DNA of 64,000 nt from a phage: NCBI GenBank assembly GCA_025812035.1, contig GCA_025812035.1_4719.1; one strand, given 5' to 3'. The position numbers and the translations under genes were made by a program. The notes beneath the pieces are model-generated. The model had not been told where the DNA came from. It was given only the letters and a program-made list of their open reading frames with translations, and made no database searches. Shown here in pieces: positions 6,894 to 60,225 of this stretch (the stretch's first letter is position 1; each line of letters starts with the position of its first letter).

Positions 6894-6923
6894 ACGGATG
6901 TAAAAAAAATAACACATAGTTAA

Positions 6924-6958
6924 CCTTCTCCCCAACCCGATGAGGGAAGGGGAGAAGG
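6924..6958. terminator. bidirectional hairpin between convergent genes
   Basis: Perfect 10-bp stem CCTTCTCCCC/GGGGAGAAGG around inner CCC-GATGA-GGG; A8 tract upstream and T-rich downstream on plus. Confidence 0.6.
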
Positions 6959-6975
6959 GCTATGCGCTATTTAAT

Positions 6976-7251: not shown

Positions 7252-7313
7252 ACGGTTTCCTTTGCAACTAGGGTATTGCAAACGACAATACCCATCATCG
7301 GATGATAACTTAA

Positions 7314-9857: not shown

Positions 9858-9891
9858 TTCTTACGATCCTTTTTATTTATTCGGTTATGTG

Positions 9892-11688: not shown

Positions 11689-11727
11689 CACACACTCCTT
11701 TCAGAAAGTTGCTTAAGCAGATTAAAG

Positions 11728-13197
11728 TTACTTTTTCGATGAAGCTTTCTCAAGAATCTTGAAAAAGGTCATACCTATACCAACAACGGCCGCGGTTATA
11801 CTCGCAGCGGCTTTCCAGACATCGACGTTACGTTGACGTCGCGCTTCTTCCGCTTCGCGTTGTCTTTTTGCTTCATCATCACGACGGCGTAGCTCAGTTG
11901 TGAATTCATCGTGCTTACGTTTCGCGTCCTCGTCTCGGCGACGCATTTCAGCGATAAGCTCATCATGCTTACGTTTTGCCTCTTCATCACGACGTTTAAG
12001 TTCAGCTTGATGTTCTTCTCGTATTTGTTTACGAAGATCATCTTGACGTTTCATTTCGGCTTGGTGGTGTTCCATCCTACGTTCAGTATCGTCTTTAAGC
12101 TGTTTAACAATTTCCGCATGTTGCTTATTTTGTCGTTCCGCATCGGTTTTATACAATTCGTGTAATTGCTTTATTTCCGATGCGTGAGCGTCAGCCTGTC
12201 GTTTCATTTCGTTGGTATGATCGACCTGCAGTTGCTTTATTTCAGCCATCAGCCCTTTAAGGGTTTCTTCTGTTGACTTACGTTCATAGCTACGTTGGTC
12301 GAAATCATTTTTGTAGGCTTCTTTTTGGATGGGGTCGCGCCAATGCAATGCCGATTCACGTGTCGGAAAAACATTGTACTTCCACATCTCTTTTTCCAAA
12401 TCTTCGACCGGTACGAAGACGGAGTCATTATTCCCGAAGGTAACCAACATACCTGGCGCGCCTGCTCCATTCGTTGGTTTTATTTCGAACGCTTTTCCCA
12501 GAACGTTAACCCATAAGCTATACGGATTATGAAAGTCTGGTGGCGTCCAATGGATAGTGAGTTGCGTTCCGAGAATCCGGAAACCCTCTGTTTTTCCCGT
12601 CAAGCTTCGCGCACACGTTGCGATGTAGGGGTGATCAATCCCTTTCGTAACGTGGTCTGCGCTTTTGTATTCTCCTTTAACTTTTACGACTGCCACGTTG
12701 ATTTGCGCGACATAAATAGGTTGATTAAAGTTCAACGTGTTGAGGTCAATTTGGCATACTTCATCCAGCGTATCGTACCAGTCTTGCTGGTCTAATAGAC
12801 GCGGTATTTTCTCCGTGTTAACGATGCGACGGATATGCGGTTTCCTTATCGCGTAACCTGTGCCGTTTTTAACACGAAGTATATCCCGACGTCTACCCGC
12901 GTAGACGAAGTTTCTGAATGCACCATTCGCATTAGATACGTCATGGCTGTCAACTATTACAGGACTACGAAATTTTGAACGCCTTACGATCCTGAATGTA
13001 TTGCCGTCCTCAACCCTACCAGGAATGTACTGGAACATATTGTCGGAGGTGATAACCAACACGGTATGGTTGGATTCATTAATACACGCCCATCCTAATT
13101 CCAGGTCATATAACGGTTCAGCATAACCGTCAATGCGATATGCGTGCGTACCATCCCACGGTTCGAACGCGGTATCACATATTGGCATGGAGGGCAT
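11728..13197 (-). CDS. hypothetical protein with C-terminal charged coiled-coil repeats and C-terminal transmembrane anchor
   Basis: ORF track 11728..13203 (TTG); ATG at 13195-13197 with GGAGG SD; C-terminal ~150 aa are K/R/E/D-rich heptad-like repeats (ELKRRDEEAKRKHDE / RRRDEDAKRKHDE / RRRDDEAKRQRE) followed by hydrophobic AAASITAAVVGIGMTFFKIL and KK end. Confidence 0.6.
   Translation of the reverse strand: MPSMPICDTAFEPWDGTHAYRIDGYAEPLYDLELGWACINESNHTVLVITSDNMFQYIPGRVEDGNTFRIVRRSKFRSPVIVDSHDVSNANGAFRNFVYAGRRRDILRVKNGTGYAIRKPHIRRIVNTEKIPRLLDQQDWYDTLDEVCQIDLNTLNFNQPIYVAQINVAVVKVKGEYKSADHVTKGIDHPYIATCARSLTGKTEGFRILGTQLTIHWTPPDFHNPYSLWVNVLGKAFEIKPTNGAGAPGMLVTFGNNDSVFVPVEDLEKEMWKYNVFPTRESALHWRDPIQKEAYKNDFDQRSYERKSTEETLKGLMAEIKQLQVDHTNEMKRQADAHASEIKQLHELYKTDAERQNKQHAEIVKQLKDDTERRMEHHQAEMKRQDDLRKQIREEHQAELKRRDEEAKRKHDELIAEMRRRDEDAKRKHDEFTTELRRRDDEAKRQREAEEARRQRNVDVWKAAASITAAVVGIGMTFFKILEKASSKK
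11830..12010 (-). repeat. imperfect tandem DNA repeats (~54-63 bp) encoding the charged coiled-coil repeats
   Basis: Plus-strand units such as TCATCGTGCTTACGTTTCGCGTCCTCGTCTCGGCGACG / TCATCATGCTTACGTTTTGCCTCTTCATCACGACG; in-frame within gene 11728..13197. Confidence 0.5.
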
Positions 13198-13346
13198 CGT
13201 CAACCTCCATCAGATTGAAAACTATCACGCATAATGCATTTCCCTTTTCTTGTTCTTATCGAGCCGACAGCCGACGGTTTCAGCATCGTTCCTAGCGCGA
13301 GAACGACCTTACGTGTTGTCTATGCCTTATTCATCGCAGGCGTCTG

Positions 13347-13403
13347 TCACCTAGGTAATGTAAGCGTCAAATTTTTTCTATTTGCAACGATAAACAGCAT
13401 AGA
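13347..13403 (-). promoter_or_regulatory. conserved intergenic element, copy 1 (candidate promoter, partly diverged)
   Basis: Shares TCACCTAGGTAAT(G/A)TA and ACAGCATAGAA ends with the copies at 21507 and 59630; sits between a terminator hairpin and the next minus-strand gene. Confidence 0.35.
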
Positions 13404-13437
13404 AGCCTCCCCCAACCCTTGCGGGCTGAGGGAGGCT
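13404..13437 (-). terminator. hairpin terminator downstream of the capsid-candidate gene
   Basis: Stem AGCCTCCC/GGGAGGCT with inner CCC-TTGC-GGG; on minus strand followed by TTCTATGCTGTTTATCG. Confidence 0.55.
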
Positions 13438-13534
13438 GACTTATGTATCACGGTGCCGGATGAATGTCCGGTGCAATGAAACCATCTGCAACGTTGTCGT
13501 CAAGAATATCATCCAACGAAGCAGCTACGGTAGT

Positions 13535-15757
13535 TCAGTTAGTCTGAACCGGCAGCTTGATGTTTTCAGTGTAGACCTTACGCAGGTTCACGACGTTAAT
13601 CAGACCCAGCAGCGGGCAGTTGTTAACGAAGCGGCAGCGCGGCTGAACCATGGTTTCTTTAGAAACCTGACCGTTACGGGTAACCTGAGCAACAGATACC
13701 AGTTCCGGTACATACAGGAACATACCGAAGGTCAGCGGATCCGGAGAACCCTGGATACCACGAGACAGGGTCACGAAGATCTTATCACGCAGCAGGACGT
13801 TCGGGTTATCTACAACCACGAAGTTGAAGCTTACACCAACGGTACGGAAATCACCATCGGTCTGCAGGAACTGCGGGATGTAGTTGTCGGTTGCTACTAC
13901 GCAACGCGGTTTCTCATCAGCGTTGGAAGACAGCAGCTGCAGAGCTGGCTGATAACCAGACTCAGAGTACATGCGGTATGCCATCTCACGAATCACGTTC
14001 ATGATCGCAGCGGACACTTCAGCACGACGTTCTGCAGTGGTGGTACCCTGAACGGATTTCGCCAGGTCCAGGTTGATTTCTTCGAACCACGGACGGATCA
14101 GGTAACGACCGAAACCTTCGATCTGGATGTCACCGAACTGACGGAAGCGAGAGGTCGCAACTGCTTTCAGTGCGTCTTTGTAGCTGAACAGTTTCTCAAC
14201 CATCAGGTTGTCGAAACGTGCGTTAGCCGCTTGGATCAGAACGTCCAGGTCAGCAGCGTTTTCTTCCCAATCAAGCGGACGAGGAATGGAGAACGGAGCC
14301 AGCAGACCGATTGCGTAACGCTCTTGCTTCATGTTGAAGTCAAGGTGCTTACCACGTTCACGACGGTTGCTGTTGTTACGACGGATACGCAGTTCGTAAC
14401 CAACCAGTTTGAAGCTCAGGTCGTCAGCCAGGTCTTTGAATTCTTGGCTCTTACGCGGCTGTTCGATGTTGTCCTGATCAACCAGGCGATACAGTTCAGC
14501 GTTAGCGCCGTTAACACGCAGACCCGCTTTCTCTACGTTGGAAGAACCGTAAACTTCGATAGCCAGCTGAGCAGCGGATTTCGCATCGATGATGTCCTGC
14601 AGCGCTTCGGCTTTCGCACCTTTAACGTCAACGGTGTTCTCATCAACGAAGATGGAGTGAGTGTCGAACGCCAGGGTCATTTTGCGGAAGTCGCCTTCCA
14701 GAGATTTCTGGAAACCGTTGGTGATCAGACCGGATACGTCGAACGGAACGTAAGAGGTTTTGCTGTGCTTAGCGGATTTGATTTCCACCAGGATTTTGGT
14801 CAGCGTGATCTGAGCATCCAGCGCGTCGGTGTTGTCGCTGTAACCGTTAGCCAGAATGCTATCGTCTTCAGCGATACCGATCATGTCGATCAGTTTATCA
14901 ACAGCCAGGTAAGACGTTTTATAAGTTACGCCTTTAATTTCGATGTCACGCGGAGCAACGATAGCTTTGTCAACGAAGTACTGCGCGTTAGCATCGTCAG
15001 CACGATAGATCGGGTGCAGGTCGGTCACGTCGTTGGACAGAACGTCGTTGTACATGAACGCGTCCAGCAGCGGACGACGTACCCAATCAGCCGGAGTACC
15101 GTCAGCGTTACGACGCAGATGGTTGAATACCAGCGGACGACGGAAAGATACGTCATAACCGATCTGGTTCGGAGCCAGAACGATGGTGTTGTACAGTTCG
15201 TTACCCATGCGGCTCAGACGAGAAGCCTTCACGTTGAACACAACGGAGTACGGCATCATGTCGCGCAGTTCTTTCTGGTCGTAGGACAGCTGAACCAGTT
15301 CTTCAGATTCGCAACCGCAGGAATCAGCAGCCATCATGACGAAGTTAGAGCTGTCAACTTCACGACCTGACGGAGTGGTGCTGATGTTCATGGAACGTGC
15401 TTGTTTAGCGTATTCCACCGGGTTACCATGAGCCAGCATGATCAGTGCTGCTGCACGAGCCTGCTGTGCGTTCATGGTGAACAGCTGTTCTTCAATACGC
15501 TGCTTCTCTTCCGGAGTGGTGGTTTCGAAGCCCAGCATAGACAGAACCGGTTCTTCTGCTTTACGGATGTCGCTGCTGAAGCTCTTAACATCCATATCGT
15601 TAACCAGTTTGTCCATGGATTTGAAATCAACCTTAGAAGCAGATTCCATAGACAGGAAGGTGTTTTCCAGACCTTTGTCTGCTGGTTTGCTACCATTAGC
15701 GGTCAGGAACTGGCGAGTGGCCGCGACCTGCTGGCTAAGAAGGGTTTTATCATTCAT
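13535..15757 (-). CDS. candidate major capsid protein (740 aa); tail sheath not excluded
   Basis: Strongest codon bias in the window (CGT/CTG/ACC/GGT-rich), implying very high expression; length matches the ~740-750 aa major capsid proteins I recall for phiKZ-like phages; AAAGGA SD; acidic N-terminal region with S-x-E motifs; no homology search run. Confidence 0.5.
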   Translation of the reverse strand: MNDKTLLSQQVAATRQFLTANGSKPADKGLENTFLSMESASKVDFKSMDKLVNDMDVKSFSSDIRKAEEPVLSMLGFETTTPEEKQRIEEQLFTMNAQQARAAALIMLAHGNPVEYAKQARSMNISTTPSGREVDSSNFVMMAADSCGCESEELVQLSYDQKELRDMMPYSVVFNVKASRLSRMGNELYNTIVLAPNQIGYDVSFRRPLVFNHLRRNADGTPADWVRRPLLDAFMYNDVLSNDVTDLHPIYRADDANAQYFVDKAIVAPRDIEIKGVTYKTSYLAVDKLIDMIGIAEDDSILANGYSDNTDALDAQITLTKILVEIKSAKHSKTSYVPFDVSGLITNGFQKSLEGDFRKMTLAFDTHSIFVDENTVDVKGAKAEALQDIIDAKSAAQLAIEVYGSSNVEKAGLRVNGANAELYRLVDQDNIEQPRKSQEFKDLADDLSFKLVGYELRIRRNNSNRRERGKHLDFNMKQERYAIGLLAPFSIPRPLDWEENAADLDVLIQAANARFDNLMVEKLFSYKDALKAVATSRFRQFGDIQIEGFGRYLIRPWFEEINLDLAKSVQGTTTAERRAEVSAAIMNVIREMAYRMYSESGYQPALQLLSSNADEKPRCVVATDNYIPQFLQTDGDFRTVGVSFNFVVVDNPNVLLRDKIFVTLSRGIQGSPDPLTFGMFLYVPELVSVAQVTRNGQVSKETMVQPRCRFVNNCPLLGLINVVNLRKVYTENIKLPVQTN

Positions 15758-15906
15758 TGAAAGTATCCTTTACAGAATTAACTTATATAAGTCGGTCGAT
15801 AGACCATAGCGTACACGCGTGCATGCGCCACTATAGTATCAGTAAACACTTACCGTTGTTTAGGCTGTGATACAACACTAAAAATGCCGCATAACTTTTT
15901 CCTACG

Positions 15907-16527
15907 TCACAAACGACGCAGGCGATAATGGATGGAACGATTGGTGCAATATGAACGGAACAGCGGCAATTGCGCAACTTCCGCAAGACTCATATTAATT
16001 CGCAGGTGTTCAATAACGGCGCTGTAGTTATCAGCAATACGATCGCTCAATAACTCTTCTGCCAATAAAGGAAGACAATCGACAACAATCGCGATCATAT
16101 CCTCATTAACATAACGCACCCGAACACTCAACGGACGTTTGTCTGGGCTGTAAGTTGGATCCGCCAAACGACGTTCAATATCACGCGGATAGCTCGTCAG
16201 TAAATGGTAGTAACCATTATCATAACGATTGATGTACTCACACAGCACATCAACATTCTTTTCTGGCGGCAAACCTGTTTCGTCATAGTGATACGCAAAC
16301 ATACCACCAAGCAGGTTGTTAAGATGAACTGCAGGGTTCGCTTGTTCGTGTTCTTTCGTGATGAAGAAAGGCACGTTCTGAGCTGCGAAATAAAAACCTA
16401 CATCATTGGGCGATAGTATGCCGAAAAGACTTTTAGGATCCAACAGCACCTGTAAGTCATCACGCGCATTTCGAATGATTGCGTGTTCTACCCAATTCGG
16501 AACGACGAGATATCGGAGTTCCTTCAT
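15907..16527 (-). CDS. hypothetical protein (206 aa)
   Basis: ORF track; AGAGGT SD 8 nt upstream of ATG; divergent from the helicase gene. Confidence 0.55.
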   Translation of the reverse strand: MKELRYLVVPNWVEHAIIRNARDDLQVLLDPKSLFGILSPNDVGFYFAAQNVPFFITKEHEQANPAVHLNNLLGGMFAYHYDETGLPPEKNVDVLCEYINRYDNGYYHLLTSYPRDIERRLADPTYSPDKRPLSVRVRYVNEDMIAIVVDCLPLLAEELLSDRIADNYSAVIEHLRINMSLAEVAQLPLFRSYCTNRSIHYRLRRL

Positions 16528-16566
16528 TATGATTACCTCTTTGTAAGTATCGAAAGGATTGAGTCG

Positions 16567-18177
16567 ATGGACCCAAAACAGATAGCCATTAAGATTATTA
16601 CGTTACTGTTTCGTAACGCACAATTGAACCATCCAGATCCCAGTACGATCGACCATGTTAAATCCGTCTTAGATAAAGTCGAACCCCCGAAAAACCATCT
16701 CGCTACGGACATAGATAGAGAGGTTTTCAACAACCTGATGAATACCATTCATTGGATGTTGGAACAACCATTATCGGAACCTTTCGATAAACAACAGTTG
16801 TTACAAAGGATACGTTTGGATTGTCTTGAGCAAAGCAATCTTTACGAGATTCTTGCCGACGGACTGTACGATATCGAAGACGATGCTCATATCAGTAAGG
16901 TCTGTTCGCTTTATTACAACGAATTGCGTAACTTGGTTACCCGTCGTCGTGTTTTCGAAACCTTTAAAAACACATACATGGATATCAGTAATGGGCGTCT
17001 TGGGGATAAAGAATTTTTCGACGCGATGGCGAATTTGAAACTCTCGCTAGACAGTATCGAAATGGATACCGAAAATCCCGAAGAGATGTCGTGTATGATT
17101 GACGGTTTTATCGCCGACAGTGAAGACGATATCGAGAAAGTCGAACGTATGTTCATCAAAGCGATGGAACGTAACAGTCCTGAAGGTGGATTTGTAACCG
17201 GCTGGCAAGGTTTTAATAAAATGCTAGGGTCGGTCGGTGTTTTACGTCGCGGTACCTTAGGACTGATTGGTGCGATGCAGCACAGGAACAAGTCGGGCGT
17301 GCTGTTAAAACTGTTCACACATCTGGCGTTGTACAATAAACCTCATTTCTTTTTTCCGGAGCGAGCAAAGAAAGCATTACTGATTCATTTGTCAACAGAA
17401 AACGAAGTAGAAGAAAACACGCTTCAGATATACAAAAACATGCGAGAACAGGAAACAGGCGAATATGTCGATATTCGTAAGATTGACCCTCGCGAGGCAT
17501 CACGTTATGTGTTGAAGGTTTTCAATGACGCGGGTTTCTCTGTGTGTATGCGTCGTGTTGATGGGATGAGCTATAAACAACTTGCGAACCTCATCGACCA
17601 TTTTGAACGCATGGGCTATGAAGTCATGGCGTTGTTCATCGACTATCTGAAAATGTTCTCATCGGAAGGGCTGGATAGAAACGGACCAACCGGCGCATGG
17701 CTACAAGAACTCTTCAACAAAGTCCGTAACCTCTGCAGCGTTAAACGTATTTTAGGTATGACCGTACACCAGCTATCATCCGACGCGAAGATGCGTGCGC
17801 GTGACGGTAACGATGAAGAGTTTGTTGACCAGGTCGCAGGCTTAAGTTACTGGGATGGCTGTAAAGGGATTGACCGTGAGATCGATCTTGAAGTGATTGT
17901 TGATATCGTTAAGGAACCGGGTAAACGTCAAAGCTGGCAAGTCTTTGCATTAGGGAAAGACCGTCAACCGGATAACGGTTCAACGAAACCTGAGGATAAA
18001 CATTTCACGATGCCGTTCCAAACCATCGGGATGCTTCCTGATGATTACGGTAAGAAAGCAGTATACTGCCGCAAGGTTGGCGGACAACCTGTCTCTGAGG
18101 GAGGCAAAGGTCCGTGGAACAAGTTCGATGAAAACGCAGCGCCGAGCAATGAATTACAATTTGATTTAGAATTTTAA
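16567..18177 (+). CDS. DnaB-like (SF4) replicative DNA helicase
   Basis: ORF track 16483..18177; start moved to ATG 16567 (AAGGA SD) to avoid overlap with the divergent gene. In DnaB order and spacing: GFVTGWQGFNKMLGSVGVLRRGTLGLIGAMQHRNKSG (H1/Walker A region), ALFIDYLKMF (Walker B, cf. DnaB VDYLQLM), MTVHQLSSDAKMRAR (H3, cf. SQLNR..E.R). Confidence 0.6.
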   Translation: MDPKQIAIKIITLLFRNAQLNHPDPSTIDHVKSVLDKVEPPKNHLATDIDREVFNNLMNTIHWMLEQPLSEPFDKQQLLQRIRLDCLEQSNLYEILADGLYDIEDDAHISKVCSLYYNELRNLVTRRRVFETFKNTYMDISNGRLGDKEFFDAMANLKLSLDSIEMDTENPEEMSCMIDGFIADSEDDIEKVERMFIKAMERNSPEGGFVTGWQGFNKMLGSVGVLRRGTLGLIGAMQHRNKSGVLLKLFTHLALYNKPHFFFPERAKKALLIHLSTENEVEENTLQIYKNMREQETGEYVDIRKIDPREASRYVLKVFNDAGFSVCMRRVDGMSYKQLANLIDHFERMGYEVMALFIDYLKMFSSEGLDRNGPTGAWLQELFNKVRNLCSVKRILGMTVHQLSSDAKMRARDGNDEEFVDQVAGLSYWDGCKGIDREIDLEVIVDIVKEPGKRQSWQVFALGKDRQPDNGSTKPEDKHFTMPFQTIGMLPDDYGKKAVYCRKVGGQPVSEGGKGPWNKFDENAAPSNELQFDLEF

Positions 18178-18202
18178 ACGCAAAAAAAAAGAATGTACGG
18201 TT

Positions 18203-18234
18203 CCCTCCTCCAACCCGTAAGGGAAGGAGGAGGG
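18203..18234. terminator. bidirectional intrinsic terminator
   Basis: CCCTCCTCC-AA-CCC-GTAA-GGG-AA-GGAGGAGGG hairpin (GNRA-type loop); A9 tract on plus = U9 after the hairpin on minus; between convergent genes. Confidence 0.7.
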
Positions 18235-18249
18235 TTATGACCGTGTTGG

Positions 18250-18576
18250 CTAACTTATCGTCATGAATTCACTCGGTGAGAATTTCCAACCATTCTCATT
18301 GAGAAGTGTGTTGAGTTTCGCTGCAACGATAAGCCATGCATGCATAGCCGTTACGTCGTATTGGCGATTTACCCGACGTTGGTTTTCGATATTGATTTGC
18401 TCCTGTTCAGTGATGTTTGGATAAAGTGCGATAGCGCTGGGCTTACCCAAAGCGCTAGTCATCACCGCGGTACATTCACTGATAATGTTGTTTAAGTGGT
18501 AGTTGTACACCGTTCCACGCATGACACGATGACGGCATTCGATAATAGCGTCGTAAATGATTTCTCGAGTAATCAT
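18250..18576 (-). CDS. hypothetical small protein (108 aa)
   Basis: ORF track; follows a bidirectional terminator; weak SD. Confidence 0.5.
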   Translation of the reverse strand: MITREIIYDAIIECRHRVMRGTVYNYHLNNIISECTAVMTSALGKPSAIALYPNITEQEQINIENQRRVNRQYDVTAMHAWLIVAAKLNTLLNENGWKFSPSEFMTIS

Positions 18577-18582
18577 GATAAC

Positions 18583-18984
18583 TTAAAACATGCGGTCGTT
18601 TTTAGCACGGGCGTCCATTACGAGATCGTAGATACCTGCGGTTCGTAAACATTCTTCGTAATAACGATGTGTGCCTTCCTCAGCCATCCACGATAATCCT
18701 CGGTTATCCGCAACAATAACCAGTTTGTTATTGTTGAACGCGCACACCACACGGTAGGTCGCGTTGTTATTCGGATCGCGAGTGATAAGCTCGTAGACGC
18801 CATTGACAGGTTTACTGAATTCACCGTTTAACGGGACAAGTTCAGTAGTACCTTCAGCGAACGTCGCGTTGATTGGTGATGGATCTTTAGCGATAACTGT
18901 ATATTCCACGTTATGTTCTTTACTGGTCATAATGCCGAAGTAAGAACTAATAGGGGAACGTGGTACACTAAGAATATTAAACAT
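18583..18984 (-). CDS. hypothetical small protein (~133 aa)
   Basis: ORF track 18583..19086; internal ATG at 18982-18984 has AAGAGGA SD. Confidence 0.5.
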   Translation of the reverse strand: MFNILSVPRSPISSYFGIMTSKEHNVEYTVIAKDPSPINATFAEGTTELVPLNGEFSKPVNGVYELITRDPNNNATYRVVCAFNNNKLVIVADNRGLSWMAEEGTHRYYEECLRTAGIYDLVMDARAKNDRMF

Positions 18985-19039
18985 GAATGTTGTCCTCTTA
19001 TTTGGATTTAGATTGTTGGGTTTGTCATTGAGAAATGAA

Positions 19040-19609
19040 TTAGACGATGAGCGCCCAGGTAGTAAGCACACCGCTTGCGAATTCAAGCTTAAGACGTTTG
19101 CCGATAAGTTGTTGTTGGATCATCTTCTCAGTGGTACGACGATCTTGCTGAACAGCTTTATCGAACGCTTCTTTCGCTTCGGCCTGGTAGAAGTTCGTTT
19201 CTTCGTTTTCATCGATCTCCTCGAGCGTACCCTCGTCGATGTCGGCAAGTTTTACTCGACCGTTCTCATCGGGTTGTTCTGCAGGTTCATTGTCATAAGG
19301 CGTGTCTTTTGTTGGTGCGACACGATGCTGCAACTCGACCTGTGTTAACATGATCTCCATCTCACCATCGATAGGAATGATTTCGTCGGCGCAGCCGTTT
19401 TCGGTCAGCTCTCGACTTTCCAGTAACGTCGTGGTAACAGAGAACACCTCTTCAACAGGAACCTCATCATCGTCGATGGTGTTAACCGTATTGCTGGTAA
19501 CTTCGGCAACAACCATCAAATCGAACGCGTGAGGATCGCCTGGCATTTTGATTCCTGGAAGTTTGTTGAGATACCAAGGATCAAGAATCATGATTTCTGG
19601 ATTGAACAT
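19040..19609 (-). CDS. hypothetical acidic protein (189 aa)
   Basis: ORF track; GAAAGG SD; highly acidic (DDDEVPVEE..., EEIDENEE). Confidence 0.55.
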   Translation of the reverse strand: MFNPEIMILDPWYLNKLPGIKMPGDPHAFDLMVVAEVTSNTVNTIDDDEVPVEEVFSVTTTLLESRELTENGCADEIIPIDGEMEIMLTQVELQHRVAPTKDTPYDNEPAEQPDENGRVKLADIDEGTLEEIDENEETNFYQAEAKEAFDKAVQQDRRTTEKMIQQQLIGKRLKLEFASGVLTTWALIV

Positions 19610-19683
19610 CGTTTTACCTTTCTATGTTAGGTGGGTTGCGGATAGAAGAATCAATGCATAGACTGATTTAAGTTTGTTAAGGT

Positions 19684-20586
19684 TTACTTAGTCTTCGAGT
19701 TACAAGGACTGACCTGTTGTTGTACTCGTTGAATTGTGTCGTAGTACGGGTTAGATTGGTTGAACATGTTGTTGTGTGGATGATAGCCGTATGGCGCATT
19801 TTGCCTTGTTGATGAGAAACCTTGTTGAGAAGGACGATTTGAATTAACCGCGAGTACGTAGTAAACCAAATTTTGACGGTCGAACGTTCCTTCGTTTTTG
19901 AAGGTGTCGGCGTAGGTGCTTATCGCTGGAGCGAGTCTATCACCATCGGCGGTAATAATTGTACCGTCTGGGTAAACTTCACGAACGACGCACCATGTTC
20001 CGATAAGAACGTCTTTGGGTGGCGTATTGCCGTATCCGGTTGTAACGGTAAGGTAAGTATCGAACCCTTCAGAACAACAAGGATGACGATAGATAGGTCC
20101 TGTCATTTCCGTTCTATCGGTATCATCGCATTTCTCTATTGAGAGCGATGATGTGTCGGTTTTGAAATTGTCAAATTCTTTCTTTAAGTCGATTACAGGT
20201 TCTTTCGTATAGTACTTCTTGATTGCTTTGACGTAAAGATCAGGAACGGTTGTCAGCATTCCGTTATACCTGATTCTCAGGTTTTCGAGTAATCCAAAGA
20301 TACTCGCGCATGCTTGTTCGCGAGGTTTTGTAAGATAAGAGATCCCCCCAGGAACGCTGGGATCTTTGAGAAAGAAGATTGCGTTATTGTCGTTGTGTGG
20401 TGCATTGAAGAAAACGATTGATTCGATATATACGGAGCATAGGCTGTCGTTGGCGTCGTCAGATAACACCCAGATGCACTCATCGGTCGTCTTGTTTAAA
20501 AGTTCTGTTTTGTCCACCAAACGTTGTTTCATTGCGAGGAAATGTGCCTGTTGTTCAGCGGATAATTCACGATAAATAGTGGTCAT
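19684..20586 (-). CDS. hypothetical protein, paralog A of a tandem pair (~300 aa)
   Basis: ORF track 19684..20664; ATG 20584-20586 with AAGGAG SD; shares IYRHPCCSEGFDTYLTVTTGY...REVYPDGTI core with the next gene. Confidence 0.6.
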   Translation of the reverse strand: MTTIYRELSAEQQAHFLAMKQRLVDKTELLNKTTDECIWVLSDDANDSLCSVYIESIVFFNAPHNDNNAIFFLKDPSVPGGISYLTKPREQACASIFGLLENLRIRYNGMLTTVPDLYVKAIKKYYTKEPVIDLKKEFDNFKTDTSSLSIEKCDDTDRTEMTGPIYRHPCCSEGFDTYLTVTTGYGNTPPKDVLIGTWCVVREVYPDGTIITADGDRLAPAISTYADTFKNEGTFDRQNLVYYVLAVNSNRPSQQGFSSTRQNAPYGYHPHNNMFNQSNPYYDTIQRVQQQVSPCNSKTK

Positions 20587-20671
20587 ACTCGGCTCCTTGA
20601 TTACGATAAGGATGATTGCGGTTTTGTGATGCTGGTAGGGCCCTAAACAAAGGAGCCCTACCAATATTGGG

Positions 20672-21451
20672 TTACTCAGGATCGGCGTAGAAATGATGGG
20701 GATAGCCGGAGTACGATCCCGCGTTACCGGCTATGGATTTTTTCTGGGAATCGACGACGAGCGCATAGAACTGTCGGGAATTTGTTAGCGTTGAGAAATA
20801 AGAGGAAAGGACTTTTTCATTCAACGCATCGCAAGGTAGACAGGTGCGACCGCAAAACGTCACAATACGACCGTCAGGATAGATCTCACGAATCATTCTC
20901 CATTCGCCGATATCAACCGGCGATGGCGCTGCTACAGCACCCGTTATTGTTAAGTAACGATCGTACGTGGTGTGGCATTCTGGATGAATGTAGATCGGTT
21001 GGGTATCAGTGCTTTCGTTTTCTACCTGATCTTTGCTTACGTATACCTCAAGATAAATCGTTGGTAGTCCGGTTAGAACGCCGGTATCGCGACGTTTTTT
21101 GGTAATCCGGGGACGGATATTATCGAGCACACCTTCCAGTTTTTCTGCGATTTCGTCAGCCGGTAATATATACCCGTATGTTGGTTCTAGATCATCATCG
21201 TGACTGAATAAGATACGACAGTCGTTGTTATTTTCTGGTGCTTCAGGCGGAAAGATGATGGCTTGAACCGTATGACGTTCTGCGATATAAAATCCTTCAG
21301 GTCCCTCAGTTTTGGTAAGTGTAAAGGACCAGGATGAATGATCTTCAAGTGATGTGCCTTCCAGGAAAAAGTTCGTCCGGATTGGTGCGTCCCATTTTGT
21401 GATCATATTGGCGTGACCGATAGCGCCTAACTTTTGATAAATATCTGTCAT
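20672..21451 (-). CDS. hypothetical protein, paralog B of a tandem pair (~260 aa)
   Basis: ORF track 20672..21547; ATG 21449-21451 with GAGGA SD; core IYIHPECHTTYDRYLTITG...REIYPDGRI matches the upstream gene. Confidence 0.6.
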   Translation of the reverse strand: MTDIYQKLGAIGHANMITKWDAPIRTNFFLEGTSLEDHSSWSFTLTKTEGPEGFYIAERHTVQAIIFPPEAPENNNDCRILFSHDDDLEPTYGYILPADEIAEKLEGVLDNIRPRITKKRRDTGVLTGLPTIYLEVYVSKDQVENESTDTQPIYIHPECHTTYDRYLTITGAVAAPSPVDIGEWRMIREIYPDGRIVTFCGRTCLPCDALNEKVLSSYFSTLTNSRQFYALVVDSQKKSIAGNAGSYSGYPHHFYADPE

Positions 21452-21506
21452 GATTGTATCCTCGGTTGTTAAGAGAAATTTACAGCGATAACAGTAACCG
21501 TTGTTA

Positions 21507-21565
21507 TCACCTAGGTAATATAGTCGTGAAATAAACTGGATTAACAAGAATAAGACAGCATAGAA
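21507..21565 (-). promoter_or_regulatory. conserved intergenic element, copy 2 (candidate promoter)
   Basis: ~85% identical over ~59 nt to the copy at 59630-59690 (plus strand TCACCTAGGTAATATAGTCGTGAAATAAACTGGATTAACAAGAATAAGACAGCATAGAA); on minus reads …TTGTTAATCCAGTTTATTTCACGACTATATTACCTAGGTGA, upstream of the gene starting at 21451. Confidence 0.4.
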
Positions 21566-21597
21566 CCCTCTCCCAACCCATCAGGGAAGGGAGAGGG
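21566..21597 (-). terminator. hairpin terminator of the CCCTCC family
   Basis: CCCTCTCCC…GGGAGAGGG with inner CCC-ATCA-GGG; followed on minus by TTCTATGCTGTCTTATTC. Confidence 0.55.
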
Positions 21598-21601
21598 AAT
21601 A

Positions 21602-22969
21602 TTAAACGGTTGGACGAACGGTATTGTCTTTTTCTGGTGCAATCCATAACGTGACTGTGCCATGGCATGTCCACTGTGGTTCGCGTACAGATGAACCTGC
21701 CATTGTGACAGCGCAATCGGTGCGCATGATGACCCCGTACGCTTCGCAGAGGTTGTTATCCTGCATCCACACAACTTTAGCGGGCATACCGGGATACAAC
21801 AGATCCATGTTTGCATACTCCCACACCAACTGCATTGTCCTGCCGCGTAATCCAGCAGTATTACTTAATTCACGCCATCGGTTATCGGTTACGCGCCCCA
21901 TCCCTTTCGCCACCTTCACGTTATCGCTACGTTCTTCAGTTACGTACTCGCTGACGTTTACGGTACGACTGATTATCGTATCGCCTCCTTTTGATAATGT
22001 CATTCCCTGACTCATCTGACTTGCCGAAACAAAACGTCCGCCAGCATTACCTAATAGCGAAGACGCGTTATTGATGTCGCTTACCGACGCCCCTCTCGTA
22101 CATGCAATTTCCACGTATTTATCACGATTGATCCAGGTTTTGTCCATACCTGGAAACATATCGGCAGGATAGTTGTAAAAGATAGCTGTACGTCGACCGT
22201 CAGAGAAACGGGTTTCGTCGTATAACGGATAGATATACAGATACGGAGATTGATAATAACAACCGACATCCGCTGAATAAATACCAACCTGGTTCTGGAT
22301 TTTATCTACGAGATCCATTGCGTTGGTACCGTGGGGGAGAATAAGCAATTTGAATGGGTTGTCGTTATTCGGTGCAACGATATCCACACCCTGCATTTTG
22401 AATCCGGTGTCAGCTTCAACCGCAGAAAGTATCTTACTGAATTCGAGTCGCAATACATCCAGAACTTTCGATCCGGTATAGTTTTCACCGGTTTCTGATT
22501 GCATGAAGCTTTCAAGAACAGGATCGAACAGTTGAAATTGAAGATCGACCATTTGTTCGTAGTCTTTCTTCGAAGAATCGGTTGCGGTGCGTTCATCGGT
22601 AGCAGACATACGGCTGTCTACGGTTGTTAAACAAACCGCCCGATAGACATAGGCTTGTGTAGCATCGTCTACGGTTTGGCGTTGTCCACGCATCAGGCTG
22701 TATGCCTGTACGATGACACGCATCTTAAGTTGTTGTTGATACGGTAAAATGTATTTTCCGTAATTGCCTGGTGGGAACTTTACAGAGATATAAAGTTCAT
22801 CTCCTGCGTTACGTTCGTAGTCCCGATACGTGTGGACTTGAGTCACTAAAGGAACAGACACCGTCATTGACGGCGTGATTAATTCCGCGGTGACTTTATA
22901 CGCAACAGCAACTGCCTCCTGCGCAAACGTACCGATATACCGTCCTAACGGCGTCTGTTTGTAATCCAT
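21602..22969 (-). CDS. hypothetical protein (455 aa); last gene of an overlapping five-gene operon
   Basis: ORF track; start 5 nt from the stop of the upstream gene. Confidence 0.6.
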   Translation of the reverse strand: MDYKQTPLGRYIGTFAQEAVAVAYKVTAELITPSMTVSVPLVTQVHTYRDYERNAGDELYISVKFPPGNYGKYILPYQQQLKMRVIVQAYSLMRGQRQTVDDATQAYVYRAVCLTTVDSRMSATDERTATDSSKKDYEQMVDLQFQLFDPVLESFMQSETGENYTGSKVLDVLRLEFSKILSAVEADTGFKMQGVDIVAPNNDNPFKLLILPHGTNAMDLVDKIQNQVGIYSADVGCYYQSPYLYIYPLYDETRFSDGRRTAIFYNYPADMFPGMDKTWINRDKYVEIACTRGASVSDINNASSLLGNAGGRFVSASQMSQGMTLSKGGDTIISRTVNVSEYVTEERSDNVKVAKGMGRVTDNRWRELSNTAGLRGRTMQLVWEYANMDLLYPGMPAKVVWMQDNNLCEAYGVIMRTDCAVTMAGSSVREPQWTCHGTVTLWIAPEKDNTVRPTV

Positions 22970-22971
22970 GT

Positions 22972-23577
22972 TTAACGACTCCGTTGCTGTTGTTGAATGA
23001 TGAACTCTTCGATCTTCGTACCACGGAATTCGCTGTGACGAACCGCTTGCAGTTGTTCTTCAACGGTTGGGCCAGCATTGAGACCGCCACGACGTGCGCG
23101 GTTGATACCGATTCGGCGACGTTGACCGATCTCACGTAAACGTGAAGATAATCCGCTCATCTCAGTAGGGTCTTTAATACGACCACGTGCGACGTTCCAT
23201 AAACCACCCATGAACTCTTCGAGAATACGGCTGGCTTCGAGGGACGGTACTCGCGCGTTAGGATCGTTTTCAAGATTGTATTTAACGTATTCCGTGTGTT
23301 CCAGAAGAAGCATGAACATCTTCATGGCGTTCACGTCAGGATTTGCGATACGCATAGGGACACCACGAGAATGTTTTTCAGCAGCCTGCGGTACAGTGAG
23401 CTGTGCGGGCACCTCTTCGTTCATGGCCATATCGTCGATTTCTGCAACACCTGAAGAGTAGACACCGCTGACTTCGTTGGTGTAATTATCCACCATGAAT
23501 TTACGGGGGATCCAGAATTCGAATTTACGTTCAAATAGACGTTTGGTTGGGGTATCTTTAACGTGTTGTAGACTCAT
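22972..23577 (-). CDS. hypothetical protein (201 aa)
   Basis: ORF track; overlaps upstream gene by 4 nt. Confidence 0.6.
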   Translation of the reverse strand: MSLQHVKDTPTKRLFERKFEFWIPRKFMVDNYTNEVSGVYSSGVAEIDDMAMNEEVPAQLTVPQAAEKHSRGVPMRIANPDVNAMKMFMLLLEHTEYVKYNLENDPNARVPSLEASRILEEFMGGLWNVARGRIKDPTEMSGLSSRLREIGQRRRIGINRARRGGLNAGPTVEEQLQAVRHSEFRGTKIEEFIIQQQQRSR

Positions 23578-26818: not shown

Positions 26819-26870
26819 CGCAGATTCCTGTTTGAAAGATAAGATATCACATGATGGTTGACAGCATAAA

Positions 26871-26890
26871 GCCCACCCCGAAGGGCGGGC
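26871..26890 (-). terminator. hairpin terminator
   Basis: GCCCACCC-CGAA-GGGCGGGC (one mismatch); followed on minus by TTTATGCTGTCAACC. Confidence 0.5.
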
Positions 26891-32780: not shown

Positions 32781-32818
32781 CCAAGTCAAAAGATAACCGG
32801 ATGTTAACAGCATAATCA

Positions 32819-32850
32819 CCTCCTCCAACCCGTAAGGGAAGGAGGAGGGT
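32819..32850 (-). terminator. hairpin terminator of the CCCTCC family
   Basis: CCTCCTCC-AACCCGTAAGGGAA-GGAGGAGGG; followed on minus by GATTATGCTGTTAACATCC. Confidence 0.55.
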
Positions 32851-35474: not shown

Positions 35475-35521
35475 GTGTTGTCTCCAGTAACAATTCAAAA
35501 GATAAACCAGAACGGCATAAA

Positions 35522-35553
35522 CCCCTCTCCCAACCCGTAAGGGAAGGGAGAGG
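35522..35553 (-). terminator. hairpin terminator of the CCCTCC family
   Basis: CCCTCTCCC-AACCCGTAAGGGAA-GGGAGAGGG; followed on minus by U-rich TTTATGCCGTTCTGGTTTATCTTTTG. Confidence 0.6.
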
Positions 35554-35576
35554 GAATATATCAGTTTATTAACCGA

Positions 35577-43782: not shown

Positions 43783-43803
43783 AACAAAATAGCAAGTACA
43801 TAA

Positions 43804-43835
43804 CCCTCCTCCAACCCGTAAGGGAAGGAGGAGGG
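43804..43835. terminator. bidirectional hairpin between convergent large genes
   Basis: CCCTCCTCC-AACCCGTAAGGGAA-GGAGGAGGG, same inner loop as the 18203 copy. Confidence 0.65.
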
Positions 43836-43844
43836 AATATGTTG

Positions 43845-46800
43845 TTATCTTACGTTAGTACTATTCTGCTGTTCGCTGAACCAACCATAAACCTTGAGAT
43901 CGGTACCGTATTTCAGTGCGATATACGCATTCAGTGCTGCACAGAACAAAGACGCGAATGCCCATACCAGCGAAGGATCGACATCTTCCGTTACCGCCAC
44001 CAGGGTAGCCTCTGGTTCCCATGACGGAGAACTGTCTGTAAACGTCGTGAACCATGCCCGACGTTGTTCTTCAGTGGTAAAGTCGCTATGTGGCTCCAAC
44101 GCTTCTTTTGCCAAACGTCGATATTCGGTCATATGAATCGCGAGAGCCGCTGAGCTATCATATTTGCATTCATAGTTCGGATCAACAGCACAACAGAGTT
44201 CTGCGGAATCCAACAAAGCAAGCGCTTGTTTGATGCTGTCGGTGGTGCCTGCACTATAAAGCTCGATAGACTGCGAAAGCTTTTCACAGAACGCATTTAA
44301 CGCGGCAGGATCGGATACCTGAAGGTCAAGACCTAATGTCCACGGATAGTTACTGAACACACCCGTAAACTGCGGCATAACACCCAACAGATGTTGTCCG
44401 ATTACAGCGCGGTTATAAGTAGCCCGATTATAGACTTGAAACGCGGCCTCCAATGCTTGGTTATAATGACGACGAAGTTCGTCACGCGTGTTGCGGAATC
44501 TGTTCGCCGCGAGACTCGTAGCTGCGACGCTACAAACATCGTAACCAGTGGACGAGAGCACAACGTCGTTAAGATCGAACGCTTCCTGTTTCAACGATCC
44601 ATTAACAGCTACCGCTTCGCTGTTCGCTTTATCGACAACCGTACTCAACGCGTTGATATAACGTTTAGCGCGGACTTCCAACCATTGTGCAATACCGAGA
44701 ATATCTACCGCGGCTTTAGCAAGATCGCGTGCGTTCACGATTTCGTTCTTCAAGGCACCCAACCCTTTATTCTCAGGCGAAGAGGCTTGTTGACGAATCA
44801 TGCTGTTTAACATGGTAAGCAGATTATCCAACTCATGTCCGCTGACCTTGTTACGCGCATCGGTAATCGGCCCTTGCAGGAATTTACGGCAACCATCGTT
44901 GTATCGAATCAGTTTATCCACATCGATCGACTCGTTAGCGGATTCCTTGAACTGATTCTTCAATTCTTCACGGTAATCATGAATTTCACTTGCAAGATTG
45001 TCGACAGTGATACCATCATGTTCGAGAAGAACTTTATTGAAGTTACCTTTCTCGAATGCAAGAGCAAGACCTTCGCGAATCTTAGCGAGTTTATCCTGAT
45101 CGAGTTCACGACCGTTTGATAACTCTTTCACTTCCGAGCTGATTAATGCTGCAACGTTACCCAGATTGTCGGTAACCCCTTTGAATGTCCCCGACCAAAT
45201 CGTTCCCGCTTCAGCATATTTCGCAATGGTCTGAATACCGACGGTATGCAATGACGCTAAACGTTTCTTCGTGCCTTCGGTAAGCAGTGCGTCTTTAGCT
45301 CGCGTAAGCTGGCTGTTATTAGCTTCCGCTTGCTGAATCGCTGCTTTCGCATTTCCATTACGCCAGCTCTTAACCAACCAATCAACCAGACGTTTTAGGA
45401 TGTTGACGGTATATTCCATCGTCCGCCGTAACGTCTCCCACGCGCTTTCAGCGGTATAAATGCCGTACCCTTCCATCGTCAACGCTTTCAAGCTTGTTTG
45501 ACGTGCCAGCCATTCTACCGTTGCAGAGCAAACGTTTACTAATGCTTCCAGGTAGTTGTAATAGACGTCTGTTGCCGACGTTTCGTTGAACTTTGAATGC
45601 AGATAGAACTGATCGTAAAGTTCGTCGTCATCACCGAAGGCATCATAGTTCCACAGTTCTGTATCACAACCTGTGCCGCAGAAGACGTCAGCTGTCGTAA
45701 ACTCTTTAAGCGCTTTAGCGGCGTCATTTGTCAGGAATTTACCTGTTTCAACTACATCGTCGACATTAAGTTTGGGGAGTTCGTCGGTGACCGGCTCTTC
45801 CAACATCAGCATATTGAAGAATGTGCTATACTTGTATCCGAGCCATTTTGGATAGCTGCTTTCAGGGATCGTAGACAGCGGCTTGATTTTCTTGGCTTCA
45901 GCCAACGTGTCTTTTGCGACCTGATATTGGTTTTCCCCAGCCTTGACGCGACGTAATGCTTTTTCTTCCAACTGCTTGAGTTTGGTATGTCGTGCTTGTG
46001 CTGGAGCTTCAACAAGTTTTTGTACGGACCGCATTGCTGATATCGCTTCTTTTAATACGATCATCGGCATACGAACTTTACCGTCGTCGAAACTAAGAGC
46101 GCGAGCGACACGTTTACTTACGACAGGCTTATCATGGATATTTCGTTCCACCCACGATTTGTTTGCGTAAGTTTGAGCGATCTGCTGTTGGATATTTTCA
46201 AGGTATTTCCAGCCGTTGGAAGCTTTGTTATCCAGAAGCGGATTCGGTCCCTTCTTATCGAAAAGTTTCAGAATCGGACCAAAGAAACCTTCCTGTACGA
46301 GTTCGATACGCGTGTATCCGTCAGCCGCTTCGATTTCTTCTTGGGTTTTGTCCCAGAGCTGTTCACTACGGACAGCAGTAGCTGTTTCAGATACCGACAT
46401 AACAAGCTCGGCAACAACTTCAGCGCAGGTCAGTACGGTACGCACGCATTGCAGTAGCATACGCTGGTAAACGATACGTGCGTTTTGTAGACGTGCGATA
46501 ACCGCTAAATAACCGATATTGTCAAGACGTTCGTCGGCTTGAGCAGAGTCAACACGTTCTATCAGTTGTTTCACCAACGCGGCTGTTTCCGGATAATCGT
46601 TCACGACGTCACGCATAATTCGTGATGCGAAAACCGCGGTACCTAAAACGTTAAGAAGTGTTTTACCGTCCCATTCTTTTGGTGTCGCTACCGATTCGGT
46701 AGGGATGAGATTTCCCGCTTGGTCGAAGTACGGCATAAGGACATTGATATCCGTAGACGGTACTGCGGTGACTGCGTTGTACTCTTCATCCGCACCATCG

Positions 46801-47465: not shown

Positions 47466-47496
47466 CCTAGGTGGAGGTTATTGGCCTCCACCTAGG
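47466..47496 (-). terminator. hairpin with perfect 12-bp stem, immediately upstream of the 1201-aa gene
   Basis: CCTAGGTGGAGG-TTATTGG-CCTCCACCTAGG; on minus followed by CAACGGAGTGTTTTATG (SD and start of next gene). Confidence 0.5.
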
Positions 47497-54138: not shown

Positions 54139-54170
54139 CCCCTCCCCCTGGCGGAAGCCGGAGGGAGGGG
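54139..54170. terminator. hairpin terminator after the polymerase gene
   Basis: CCCCTCCC…CGG-AAG-CCG…GGGAGGGG imperfect nested stem, then TGGAGGTTTTATGTGTTTTTAATT on plus; convergent with the first gene of the small-paralog array. Confidence 0.6.
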
Positions 54171-54188
54171 TGGAGGTTTTATGTGTTT

Positions 54189-55615: not shown

Positions 55616-55645
55616 CGATTCTGTTCCTGTTATAGTCAGTATAAA

Positions 55646-55681
55646 CCCTCCTTCCCTAGCCATCAAGGCCGGGGAAGGGGG
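55646..55681 (-). terminator. imperfect hairpin inside the small-paralog array
   Basis: CCCTCCTTCCC…GGGGAAGGGGG with mismatches; lies between members 3 and 4. Confidence 0.4.
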
Positions 55682-59629: not shown

Positions 59630-59690
59630 TCACCTTAGTAATATAGCCGTGAAATAAATTGTGTTAACAAGAAATAAAACAGCATAGAAC
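59630..59690 (-). promoter_or_regulatory. conserved intergenic element, copy 3 (candidate promoter)
   Basis: Plus strand TCACCTTAGTAATATAGCCGTGAAATAAATTGTGTTAACAAGAAATAAAACAGCATAGAA; between a hairpin and the gene starting at 59562. Confidence 0.4.
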
Positions 59691-59730
59691 CCTCCTCCCC
59701 CATCCTTCAAGAGGACGGTGGGAAGAGGGA
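59690..59730 (-). terminator. imperfect nested hairpin of the CCCTCC family
   Basis: CCCTCCTCC…CCATCCT-TCAAG-AGGACGG…GGAAGAGGG; followed on minus by TTCTATGCTGTTTTATTTC. Confidence 0.45.
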
Positions 59731-60138: not shown

Positions 60139-60193
60139 GAGGCGCTTTTCCTATTTTTTATTTTCTGCACAGGATAAATTCAACGGCATAAAG

Positions 60194-60225
60194 CCCTTCC
60201 CTGCCCTTATATGGGGCGGGAAGAG
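60194..60225 (-). terminator. imperfect hairpin in a 215-bp noncoding gap
   Basis: CCCTTCCCTGCCC-TTATAT-GGGGCGGGAAGAG; followed on minus by CTTTATGCCGTTGAATTT. Confidence 0.4.

Follow-up and report, generated by a model that had tools for sequence, protein, structure and literature searches.

The 64,000-nucleotide stretch of phage DNA analyzed here (GenBank assembly GCA_025812035.1, contig GCA_025812035.1_4719.1; to be referred to as the window) contains a family of intergenic hairpins, with a conserved box centred on TATG on their 3′ side. By analogy with characterized relatives, these elements are most probably factor-independent transcription terminators of the phiKZ type, in a Goslar-like chimallivirus that has its own multisubunit RNA polymerases. 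Together, the hairpin and the box correspond to a terminator motif known from phages phiKZ and 201phi2-1, in a Goslarvirus form elaborated by the nesting of hairpins. On the evidence, the box is more likely to belong to the stop signal than to be a promoter.

The window matches Escherichia phage vB_EcoM_Goslar, with about 94% DNA identity, and no other phage record matched. Goslar (NC_048170.1, 237,307 bp) belongs to the genus Goslarvirus of the Chimalliviridae and is a nucleus-forming, phiKZ-like jumbo phage of E. coli. Split β-type subunits of RNA polymerase, the nuclear shell protein and PhuZ are annotated in its record. From this identity and annotation, the genome type is that of a chimallivirus with its own multisubunit RNA polymerases. 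The complete annotated Goslar genome was used for comparison; positions 1–25000 of the window correspond to Goslar 29919–53209, in unchanged orientation. The majority of the window genes are on the minus strand, and most of the elements are therefore to be read on that strand.

Overall features of the hairpin family

The initial annotation of the window listed 12 sites with hairpins. All 12 were read, and in each the 5′ arm is rich in C and T and the 3′ arm in G and A (pyrimidine-first and purine-last), with the hairpin located just 3′ of a stop codon. The site at 18203–18234 has the structure first described for it, CCCTCCTCC-AA-CCC-GTAA-GGG-AA-GGAGGAGGG. A sliding fold of the whole window gives 24 hairpins at -20 kcal/mol or better, and 14 of them are in the intergenic DNA, which makes up about 5% of the window. 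Twelve of these 14 are the listed sites, and the other two (20634 and 47466) are of other sequence types. The motif CCCGNRAGGG is found five times, against 0.32 expected.

Sorting by the composition of the whole arm proved too stringent, given that the arms also contain inner stems and CATAA/TTATG extensions, and was dropped. The descriptor used instead looks for an arm of six pyrimidines, four or more of them C, with the reverse complement of this 6-mer 3–34 nt downstream. It has 11 matches in the window (0.4 in shuffled sequences), and none in the purine-first arrangement. In Goslar it has 42 matches, 39 of them intergenic (2.5 in shuffles), with 8 for the purine-first arrangement (2.7 in shuffles). 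The family is therefore genome-wide; the initial annotation had reasoned that elements absent from the rest of the genome would be a local repeat, which is not what the 42 Goslar copies show.

The typical copy has two tiers, with an outer stem of 8–10 bp, a 2×2 internal loop (AA/AA or UU/UU), and an inner CCC-N4-GGG or other module. The conserved inner GNRA loop proposed earlier is present on the plus strand of some copies, but the loops on the transcribed strand at minus/minus junctions are UUAC, UGAU and others. GNRA is therefore not a defining feature of the family. The covariation of the stems, on the other hand, stands. In 15 distinct type-1 copies from the window and Goslar, 96.7% of the cells are paired, with two-sided changes in 7 of the 12 base pairs (24 cells) and one-sided changes in none, and the covariation score is reached by none of 500 shuffles. 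All of these changes are from C-G to U-A, keeping the pyrimidine on the 5′ side, and the symmetric subfamily has no G·U pairs. Between orthologues in the window and Goslar, there are two compensatory swaps at 47466 and a paired insertion at 32819.

An Rfam scan of the whole window at the gathering threshold gave no matches. In IMG/VR, the exact type-1 module is found only in Goslar and two Goslar-like contigs. These contigs, IMGVR_UViG_3300045988_173921 (182,865 bp) and IMGVR_UViG_3300011560_000001 (237,533 bp), carry several exact modules each (loci L012–L019).

Identical 32-nt modules, with flanks that are also similar, are found at loci far apart, with two copies in the window and three in Goslar, which has one more without the last base. 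Moreover, the 17-nt inner module CTAGCCATCAAGGCCGG is inverted between the window (55646–55681) and Goslar (84366–84396), with the outer arms and the flanks aligned, which suggests that hairpins can flip or be swapped. This inner module is also found at Goslar 11186 and 200229. The recurrence of identical modules, the inversion between close relatives and the absence of G·U pairs from the symmetric subfamily would fit an element that acts as DNA, which might be a palindrome bound by a protein, a cruciform, or a mobile miniature repeat moving from one intergenic site to another. The likelihood of this is very slight. For the 13 window hairpins located in sequence that Goslar shares, a hairpin is found at the orthologous position in every case, and so the presence/absence polymorphism of a mobile repeat (like repetitive extragenic palindromes or miniature inverted-repeat transposable elements) is not observed between the two genomes compared. 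No target-site duplications were seen, and the placement of the hairpins tracks gene ends and gene orientation. In addition, the helix at one-directional junctions is complete in the sense RNA only, as each G·U pair is an A·C mismatch on the other strand and in DNA (see below).

Position and strand dependence of the hairpins

Several copies had been placed between convergent genes, and in fact all four convergent junctions of the window are occupied by a family hairpin. In comparison, none of the five divergent junctions has one, and about 10 of the roughly 40 co-directional junctions do. In Goslar, 15 of the 19 annotated convergent junctions have a descriptor match. For 12 of 14 sites, the distance from the upstream stop codon to the start of the hairpin is 4–35 nt; at the other two, 13404 and 60194, it is 97 and 129 nt.

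The two strands of the hairpins are not equivalent at one-directional junctions. For the minus/minus junctions of Goslar (n = 21), the sense RNA is the more stable in 14 and the less stable in 5, with a mean difference of -1.9 kcal/mol and differences of up to -10; in the window the sense RNA is the more stable in 8 of 9. No such bias is seen at convergent junctions, where the strands are equal in stability (mean difference +0.17). The difference arises because G·U pairs become A·C mismatches on the other strand. This bias speaks for a function of the RNA, exerted in the direction in which transcription arrives, and against a palindrome that acts only as DNA.

The TATG box

The box that had been noted 3′ of the hairpins (TTATGCTGT) has the general form T(T/C)TATGC(C/T)GT. 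TATGCYGT has 11 occurrences in the window (3.6 expected), of which 7, on the minus strand, come immediately after the 3′ arm of a family hairpin. Alignment of 33 Goslar flanks gives the consensus (T)(T)TATG-C-Y-G-T. A TATG starting 0–8 nt from the end of the stem is found in Goslar on 17 of the 21 sense-downstream flanks of co-directional junctions and on 21 of the 30 flanks that face a converging gene, compared to 5 of the 21 antisense flanks of co-directional junctions and a background of 2.4%.

TATGCYG occurs 86 times in Goslar. The 58 occurrences within genes are the number expected by chance, and 25 of the 28 intergenic ones are directly preceded by a strong hairpin, in some cases not of the CCCTCC type. 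By junction type, the motif is enriched about 10-fold at convergent and about 5-fold at co-directional junctions, with 1 occurrence against 0.59 expected at divergent ones. From the flank counts and the hairpin dependence, the box therefore belongs to the hairpin and tracks the transcription that ends there, whether or not another gene follows.

The box takes the place of a classical U-tract. The initial annotation attributed such tracts to some copies, but the T-runs in question are 11–15 nt past the stem and not adjacent to it. A scan of positions 6000–25999 for hairpin-plus-T-tract terminators (at least 5 T in 8, 0–2 nt after the stem) flagged none of the four family copies at 6924, 13404, 18203 and 21566, and a scan of the same 20 kb for σ70 promoters picked up no family copy. 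T-runs (T8–T9 or T4GT4) beginning at that distance are found on the minus-strand flanks of 6924, 18203, 43804 and 54139. At these convergent junctions they are too distant to be a classical U-tract, and the same order of hairpin, box and T-run is seen at T034 among the phiKZ terminators sampled (see below).

Similarity to the terminators of phiKZ and 201phi2-1

In phiKZ, Oxford Nanopore (ONT)-cappable-seq showed that most of the predicted intrinsic terminators, 61 regions, share the motif 5′-BCCYCCCCHWWDGGGRRGGBYTTATKYYGT-3′, which consists of a stem-loop and, after it, a TTAT region (Putzeys et al. 2024, Microlife, PMC10914365). Its 3′ half, GGGRRGGBYTTATKYYGT, with up to 3 mismatches, has 10 matches in the window against 2.2 expected, and 9 of the 10 are family copies. 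The copies here and in phiKZ have the same pyrimidine-first CCYCCC/GGGRGG stem, followed at once by YTTATG-YY-GT, and the same placement just after genes, with bidirectional copies between convergent genes.

Individual phiKZ sites were taken from the tables of the bioRxiv supplement, covering transcription start sites P008–P126 and terminators T034–T076, and all phiKZ counts given here refer to this sample. In 18 of the 20 transcribed terminators, the RNA 3′ end is 1–8 nt (mode 6) after the start of TTAT, inside the box; the other two have no TTAT. At the convergent pairs T059/T060 and T070/T071, TTATG is present on both flanks, as at 6924 and 43804 here, and 3′ ends are mapped on both strands. 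The sampled terminators resemble simplified copies of the present family, for example ACAGCATAA-GCCCTCCC-ATAGT-GGGAGGGC-ATTATGTTC. Their hairpins are simple, with a 7–8 bp stem and a tetra- or pentaloop, whereas most of the copies here are two-tier and much more stable. The two phages are also distant relatives, with capsid proteins that share only about 26% identity; the host here is E. coli, and the present terminators are predicted from the sequence.

Motif A of 201phi2-1 closely resembles the phiKZ motif and is found in 59 terminators (Microb Biotechnol 2024, PMC11512511). Five motifs (A–E) were described for this phage, and the co-occurrence of two of them (the A/B combination) lengthens the hairpin and gives the strongest termination. 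Eight terminators were tested in a terminator trap with the polymerase of the uninfected host; all were functional and several surpassed lambda T0 (PMC11512511). As far as the text of that paper allows comparison, the elongated two-motif hairpins parallel the nested ones here, the host being Pseudomonas chlororaphis.

With classical Rho-independent terminators, the family shares a G+C-rich hairpin soon after the stop codon, RNA 3′ ends a few nucleotides past the stem (in phiKZ), and activity on a host polymerase in the terminator trap (in 201phi2-1). It differs from them in having a conserved specific sequence in place of the stem-adjacent U-tract and a marked pyrimidine/purine asymmetry of the arms.

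Terminator function, in both directions for several copies, had been proposed in the initial annotation. It is supported by the occupancy of convergent and not of divergent junctions, by the folding of the sense strand, and by the location of the phiKZ 3′ ends in the box. By analogy with phiKZ, we infer that RNA in this phage ends at these sites and is released there from the phage polymerases.

The box is unlikely to be a general promoter

The initial annotation also suggested that the conserved box and the closely following gene starts form a coupled terminator-initiator unit, noting that phiKZ late promoters had been described as centred on TATG, which is correct. The element T(-3)ATG(+1) is the essential core of the phiKZ late promoter (Yakunina 2015) and is used by the non-virion RNA polymerase (Yakunina 2015; IUCrJ 2026), with TATG read on the non-template strand by a β-like subunit (IUCrJ 2026). 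In such a unit, the TATG of the box would be a late-type promoter core with its G as +1, with the non-virion RNA polymerase halting at the hairpin and resuming immediately for the next gene. Besides the shared four-base word, the junctions at 26871, 35523, 55646 and 60194 fit this proposal, as no other recognisable promoter was found in the 30–55 nt between box and start codon. Moreover, the phiKZ late starts P049 and P075 are at a second TATG, 5–12 nt past a terminator hairpin.

The junction statistics are contrary to it, however. The box is similarly frequent on flanks facing a converging gene and before a co-directional gene (see above), and the former count against an initiator because there is nothing to initiate at those positions. 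It is not enriched at the divergent junctions of Goslar, and outside genes it does not exceed chance without a hairpin, so that the hallmark of a phiKZ late promoter, a motif at divergent junctions independent of terminators, is not found in Goslar. The TATG here thus differs from the late promoter in depending on a hairpin, in tracking incoming transcription, and in being present where nothing remains to be transcribed.

The sampled phiKZ sites point the same way. None of the starts P008–P126 is at the TATG of a terminator box, where the RNA 3′ ends map instead. Among the 20 motif-bearing terminators, no start is within 2 nt of the box G, and four have one at a distance of 10–42 nt downstream. 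The T046/P054 start uses another TATG, which follows the box after 20 nt. TATG alone is also insufficient for initiation (Yakunina 2015).

Finally, a separate motif resembling early promoters follows the box at 13404, 21566 and 59690. The sequence TAYATTACYWAGGTGA occurs three times in the window (13347–13362, 21507–21522 and 59630–59645, all on the minus strand), against 0.11 expected, 40–55 nt downstream of these three hairpins. It is closely similar to phiKZ early promoters, which are used by the virion RNA polymerase (for example ...CAGTATATTACAAAGGTGA), and the three copies are likely to be early promoters of this phage, judged from the sequence. The order of terminator and then early promoter is also that of phiKZ, where the terminator tail is followed after about 25 nt by the early promoter TATATTAC at P017, P028 and P099. 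A second candidate motif between box and gene start, GTTWATCTTTTGA, was rejected, as it has 4 matches against 4.65 expected; two good copies of it precede neighbouring genes of similar size.

Given the early-promoter arrangement and the junction statistics, a general coupled unit is therefore unlikely, and we consider it improbable that the box serves to restart transcription. A minority of the box TATGs may also fire as promoters.

Possible mechanism of termination

By analogy with the mapped phiKZ terminators, the RNA past the stop codon would fold into a hairpin with 5′-CCCUCC...GGAGGG-3′ arms, at -20 to -32 kcal/mol and often with a second, inner stem of 3 bp. The next roughly 10 nt, (U/C)UUAUGC(C/U)GU, would form an A/U-rich proximal hybrid in place of the classical U-tract, and the transcript would be released there. 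The sequences themselves show, at convergent junctions, a strictly Watson-Crick palindrome with a box on each side, which would stop transcription in both directions. At co-directional junctions, they show a helix with G·U pairs and a box only on the sense flank, and only the sense side would have to work there.

Several points weigh against this assignment. For Goslar and the present phage, termination is deduced from homology and the logic of the sequences, a literature search having yielded no transcriptome of a Goslar-like phage, and the gene map of the window was built from open reading frames (ORFs) and Goslar synteny. The ONT 3′ ends of phiKZ cannot distinguish termination from trimming of the 3′ end back to a protective hairpin. 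Most copies have no stem-adjacent U-run, and none was flagged in the 20 kb scanned; therefore, release may differ from textbook intrinsic termination. In addition, the strict conservation of ATGCYGT exceeds the need of a weak hybrid.

The ambiguity of the 3′ ends leads to another possibility, that the elements serve the stability or processing of RNA 3′ ends, with the hairpins blocking exonucleases or the box being an endonuclease site, and with the 3′ ends in the relatives being processing products. The stability of the hairpins is far above what termination requires, and a sequence-specific box could be the site of a nuclease or an RNA-binding protein. On the other hand, terminators of 201phi2-1 with these motifs lower the expression of a downstream reporter in the uninfected host, some of them beyond lambda T0 (PMC11512511), which indicates termination, and the sampled phiKZ 3′ ends are only a few nucleotides beyond the stem, as for intrinsic terminators. 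We regard this possibility as doubtful, and a role in processing or stability would not exclude one in termination.

The conservation of the box may instead have a more specific basis. There is a small probability that the phage multisubunit RNA polymerase reads the box as a stop or pause signal of specific sequence, perhaps through the pocket, in the β-lobe of the homologue of phiKZ gp123, that recognizes the non-template-strand TATG of late promoters. Compatible with this, (T/C)TTATGCYGT is kept after otherwise unrelated hairpins in Goslar, phiKZ, RSL2, PhiEaH1 and PCH45. The box is also in line with the general rule for elemental pauses of multisubunit polymerases, G(-10)Y(-1)G(+1).

Start codons annotated in the box

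The box ATG is annotated as a start codon, 3 nt after the hairpin, for four coding sequences of Goslar, gp047 (49584–49772), gp111 (116995–117666), gp167 (152177–152272) and gp183 (166088–166924). These annotations, and the spacing of GGAGGG-N3-5-ATG, which is ideal for initiation, would agree with a translational device, in which the GGAGG of the 3′ arm is a Shine-Dalgarno sequence masked by the hairpin, controlling the next gene or a mini-ORF from the box ATG. This is highly improbable, as the ORFs from the box ATG are short and not conserved, with 6 codons at 21566 and about 20 at 59690 and 13404, and the gp047 frame stops after 6 codons in the window. In-frame extensions (4 of 21) are at about the chance level, and the box ATG is also present on flanks that run antisense into convergent genes. 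The four genes are probably mis-annotations of the start codon or of the entire gene, with the GGAGG arm mimicking a Shine-Dalgarno sequence.

Hairpins and boxes in other chimalliviruses

Other chimalliviruses were sampled as 42 kb around the capsid gene. Their capsid proteins are about 25–31% identical to that of this phage, with the most distant matches at 20–23%. In RSL2, a strong hairpin followed by TTTATGCYG is located directly after the capsid gene (CTCCTACTCCTACCCC-GCAA-GGGGTAGGAGTAGGAG-TTTATGCTGT). The same combination is present in PhiEaH1, which includes a bidirectional pair, and in PCH45, while the SPN3US sample has U-rich tails instead of the box.

Hairpins at -18 kcal/mol or better are followed by TATG in 19% of the cases in the window and Goslar, 9–10% in PhiEaH1 and PCH45, and 1% in SPN3US, against a background of about 2%; the count is noisy because most such hairpins are within genes. 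The enrichment at this cut-off is clear in the window, Goslar, PhiEaH1 and PCH45, weak in RSL2 and phiKZ, and absent in the SPN3US sample. A cut-off of -13 kcal/mol was unusable for these phages, the counts being swamped by hairpins inside genes.

Individual sites and other features of the window

The predicted terminators of the window are listed in Table 1, together with the two intergenic hairpins of other types.

Table 1. Predicted terminators and other terminator-like hairpins in the window. Strand is given for one-directional elements, and folding energies are in kcal/mol.
Position	Strand	Hairpin	Box and TATG	Context and remarks
6912..6968		6924–6958, CCTTCTCCCC-AA-CCC-GATGA-GGG-AA-GGGGAGAAGG	TATG 6961–6964 (+), 6915–6918 (-)	Predicted bidirectional; between convergent 3987–6893 (+) and 6976–7281 (-); hairpin identical in Goslar
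13392..13437	-	13404–13437; sense RNA folds into an uninterrupted 15-bp helix (GCAA loop, G·U pairs), -32.1 vs -23.5 on other strand	TCTATGCTGTTT (minus strand); TATG 13398–13401	Predicted; after major capsid gene (13535–15757, -)
18203..18244		18203–18234	+ flank TTATGACCGT, TATG 18236–18239; minus flank without TATG, T9 run 12 nt out	Predicted bidirectional; between convergent 16483–18177 (+, DnaB-like helicase) and 18250–18576 (-)
20634..20662	-	GGTAGGGCYC...	No box	Other type, terminator-like, intergenic; within the stretch absent from Goslar
21555..21597	-	21566–21597	TTCTATGCTGT; TATG 21559–21562	Predicted; 4 nt after stop of 21602–22969 (-)
26861..26890	-	Simple; sense RNA GCCCGCCC-UUCG-GGGUGGGC, one G·U pair	TTTATGCTGT; TATG 26865–26868	Orthologue at 55080–55101 of Goslar record, annotated 'putative transcriptional terminator'
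32806..32850	-	32819–32850	TGATTATGCTGTT; TATG 32811–32814	Predicted; 8 nt after stop of 32859–34148 (-)
35511..35554	-	35523–35554	GTTTATGCCGTT; TATG 35516–35519	Predicted; 22 nt after stop of 35577–36905 (-)
43793..43846		43804–43835	TATG on both flanks, 43838–43841 (+), 43799–43802 (-)	Predicted bidirectional; between convergent 40789–43782 (+) and 43845–47450 (-)
47466..47496	-	Purine-first, CCTAGGTGGAGG...CCTCCACCTAGG	No box	Other type, terminator-like, intergenic; two compensatory swaps relative to Goslar
54139..54183		54139–54170, inner GGC-GGAA-GCC	+ flank TATG 54180–54183; minus flank GCATGC, then T-runs	Predicted bidirectional; between convergent 52339–54090 (+, DNA polymerase) and 54189–54638 (-)
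55635..55681	-	55646–55681, inner CTAGCCATCAAGGCCGG	Degenerate, TTTATACTGAC	Predicted; 12 nt after stop of 55694–56101 (-)
59678..59729	-	59690–59729; sense -31.4 vs -24.8	TTCTATGCTGTT; TATG 59683–59686	Predicted; 7 nt after stop of 59737–60138 (-)
60182..60224	-	60194–60224	CTTTATGCCGTT; TATG 60187–60190	Predicted; between 60354–60992 (-) and 59737–60138 (-)

A stretch of about 1.9 kb, 19668–21547, has no counterpart in Goslar, where only the tiny gp047 is located. It contains two ORFs on the minus strand (19684–20664 and 20672–21547), behind the hairpin at 21566, and a Pfam search of these two gave no match. This cassette adjoins the hairpin at 21566 and its early-promoter-like motif, and has a different terminator-like hairpin of its own at 20634–20662.

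Positions 1–99 of the Goslar record contain a truncated copy of the terminator hairpin and box, and positions 237240–237282 a complete copy, consistent with the reported circular permutation of the genome.

Matches to σ70-like promoters are depleted in window positions 6000–25999 (17, against 32.8 ± 5.9 in shuffles), and classical hairpin-plus-T-tract terminators in the same region are at the chance level (16 against 19). Both observations would fit a phage that transcribes its genes independently of the host machinery.

Implications

The family provides a map of the ends of transcription units for Goslar-like phages; only some of its copies are annotated in the Goslar record. The GGAGG arm and the box ATG together can be a trap for gene callers, as in the four Goslar coding sequences that begin there. 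As compact, very stable and often bidirectional terminators, the elements are also possible insulators for the engineering of E. coli jumbo phages.

Termination by the σ-embedded RNA polymerases of nucleus-forming jumbo phages is essentially unstudied, and the box offers a concrete sequence to mutate. It is conserved from Pseudomonas to E. coli phages, and its core is common to the late-promoter word. If the box is a sequence-specific stop signal read through the late-promoter pocket, one four-base word would mark both the starts and the stops of transcription in these phages, and the hairpin would decide which.

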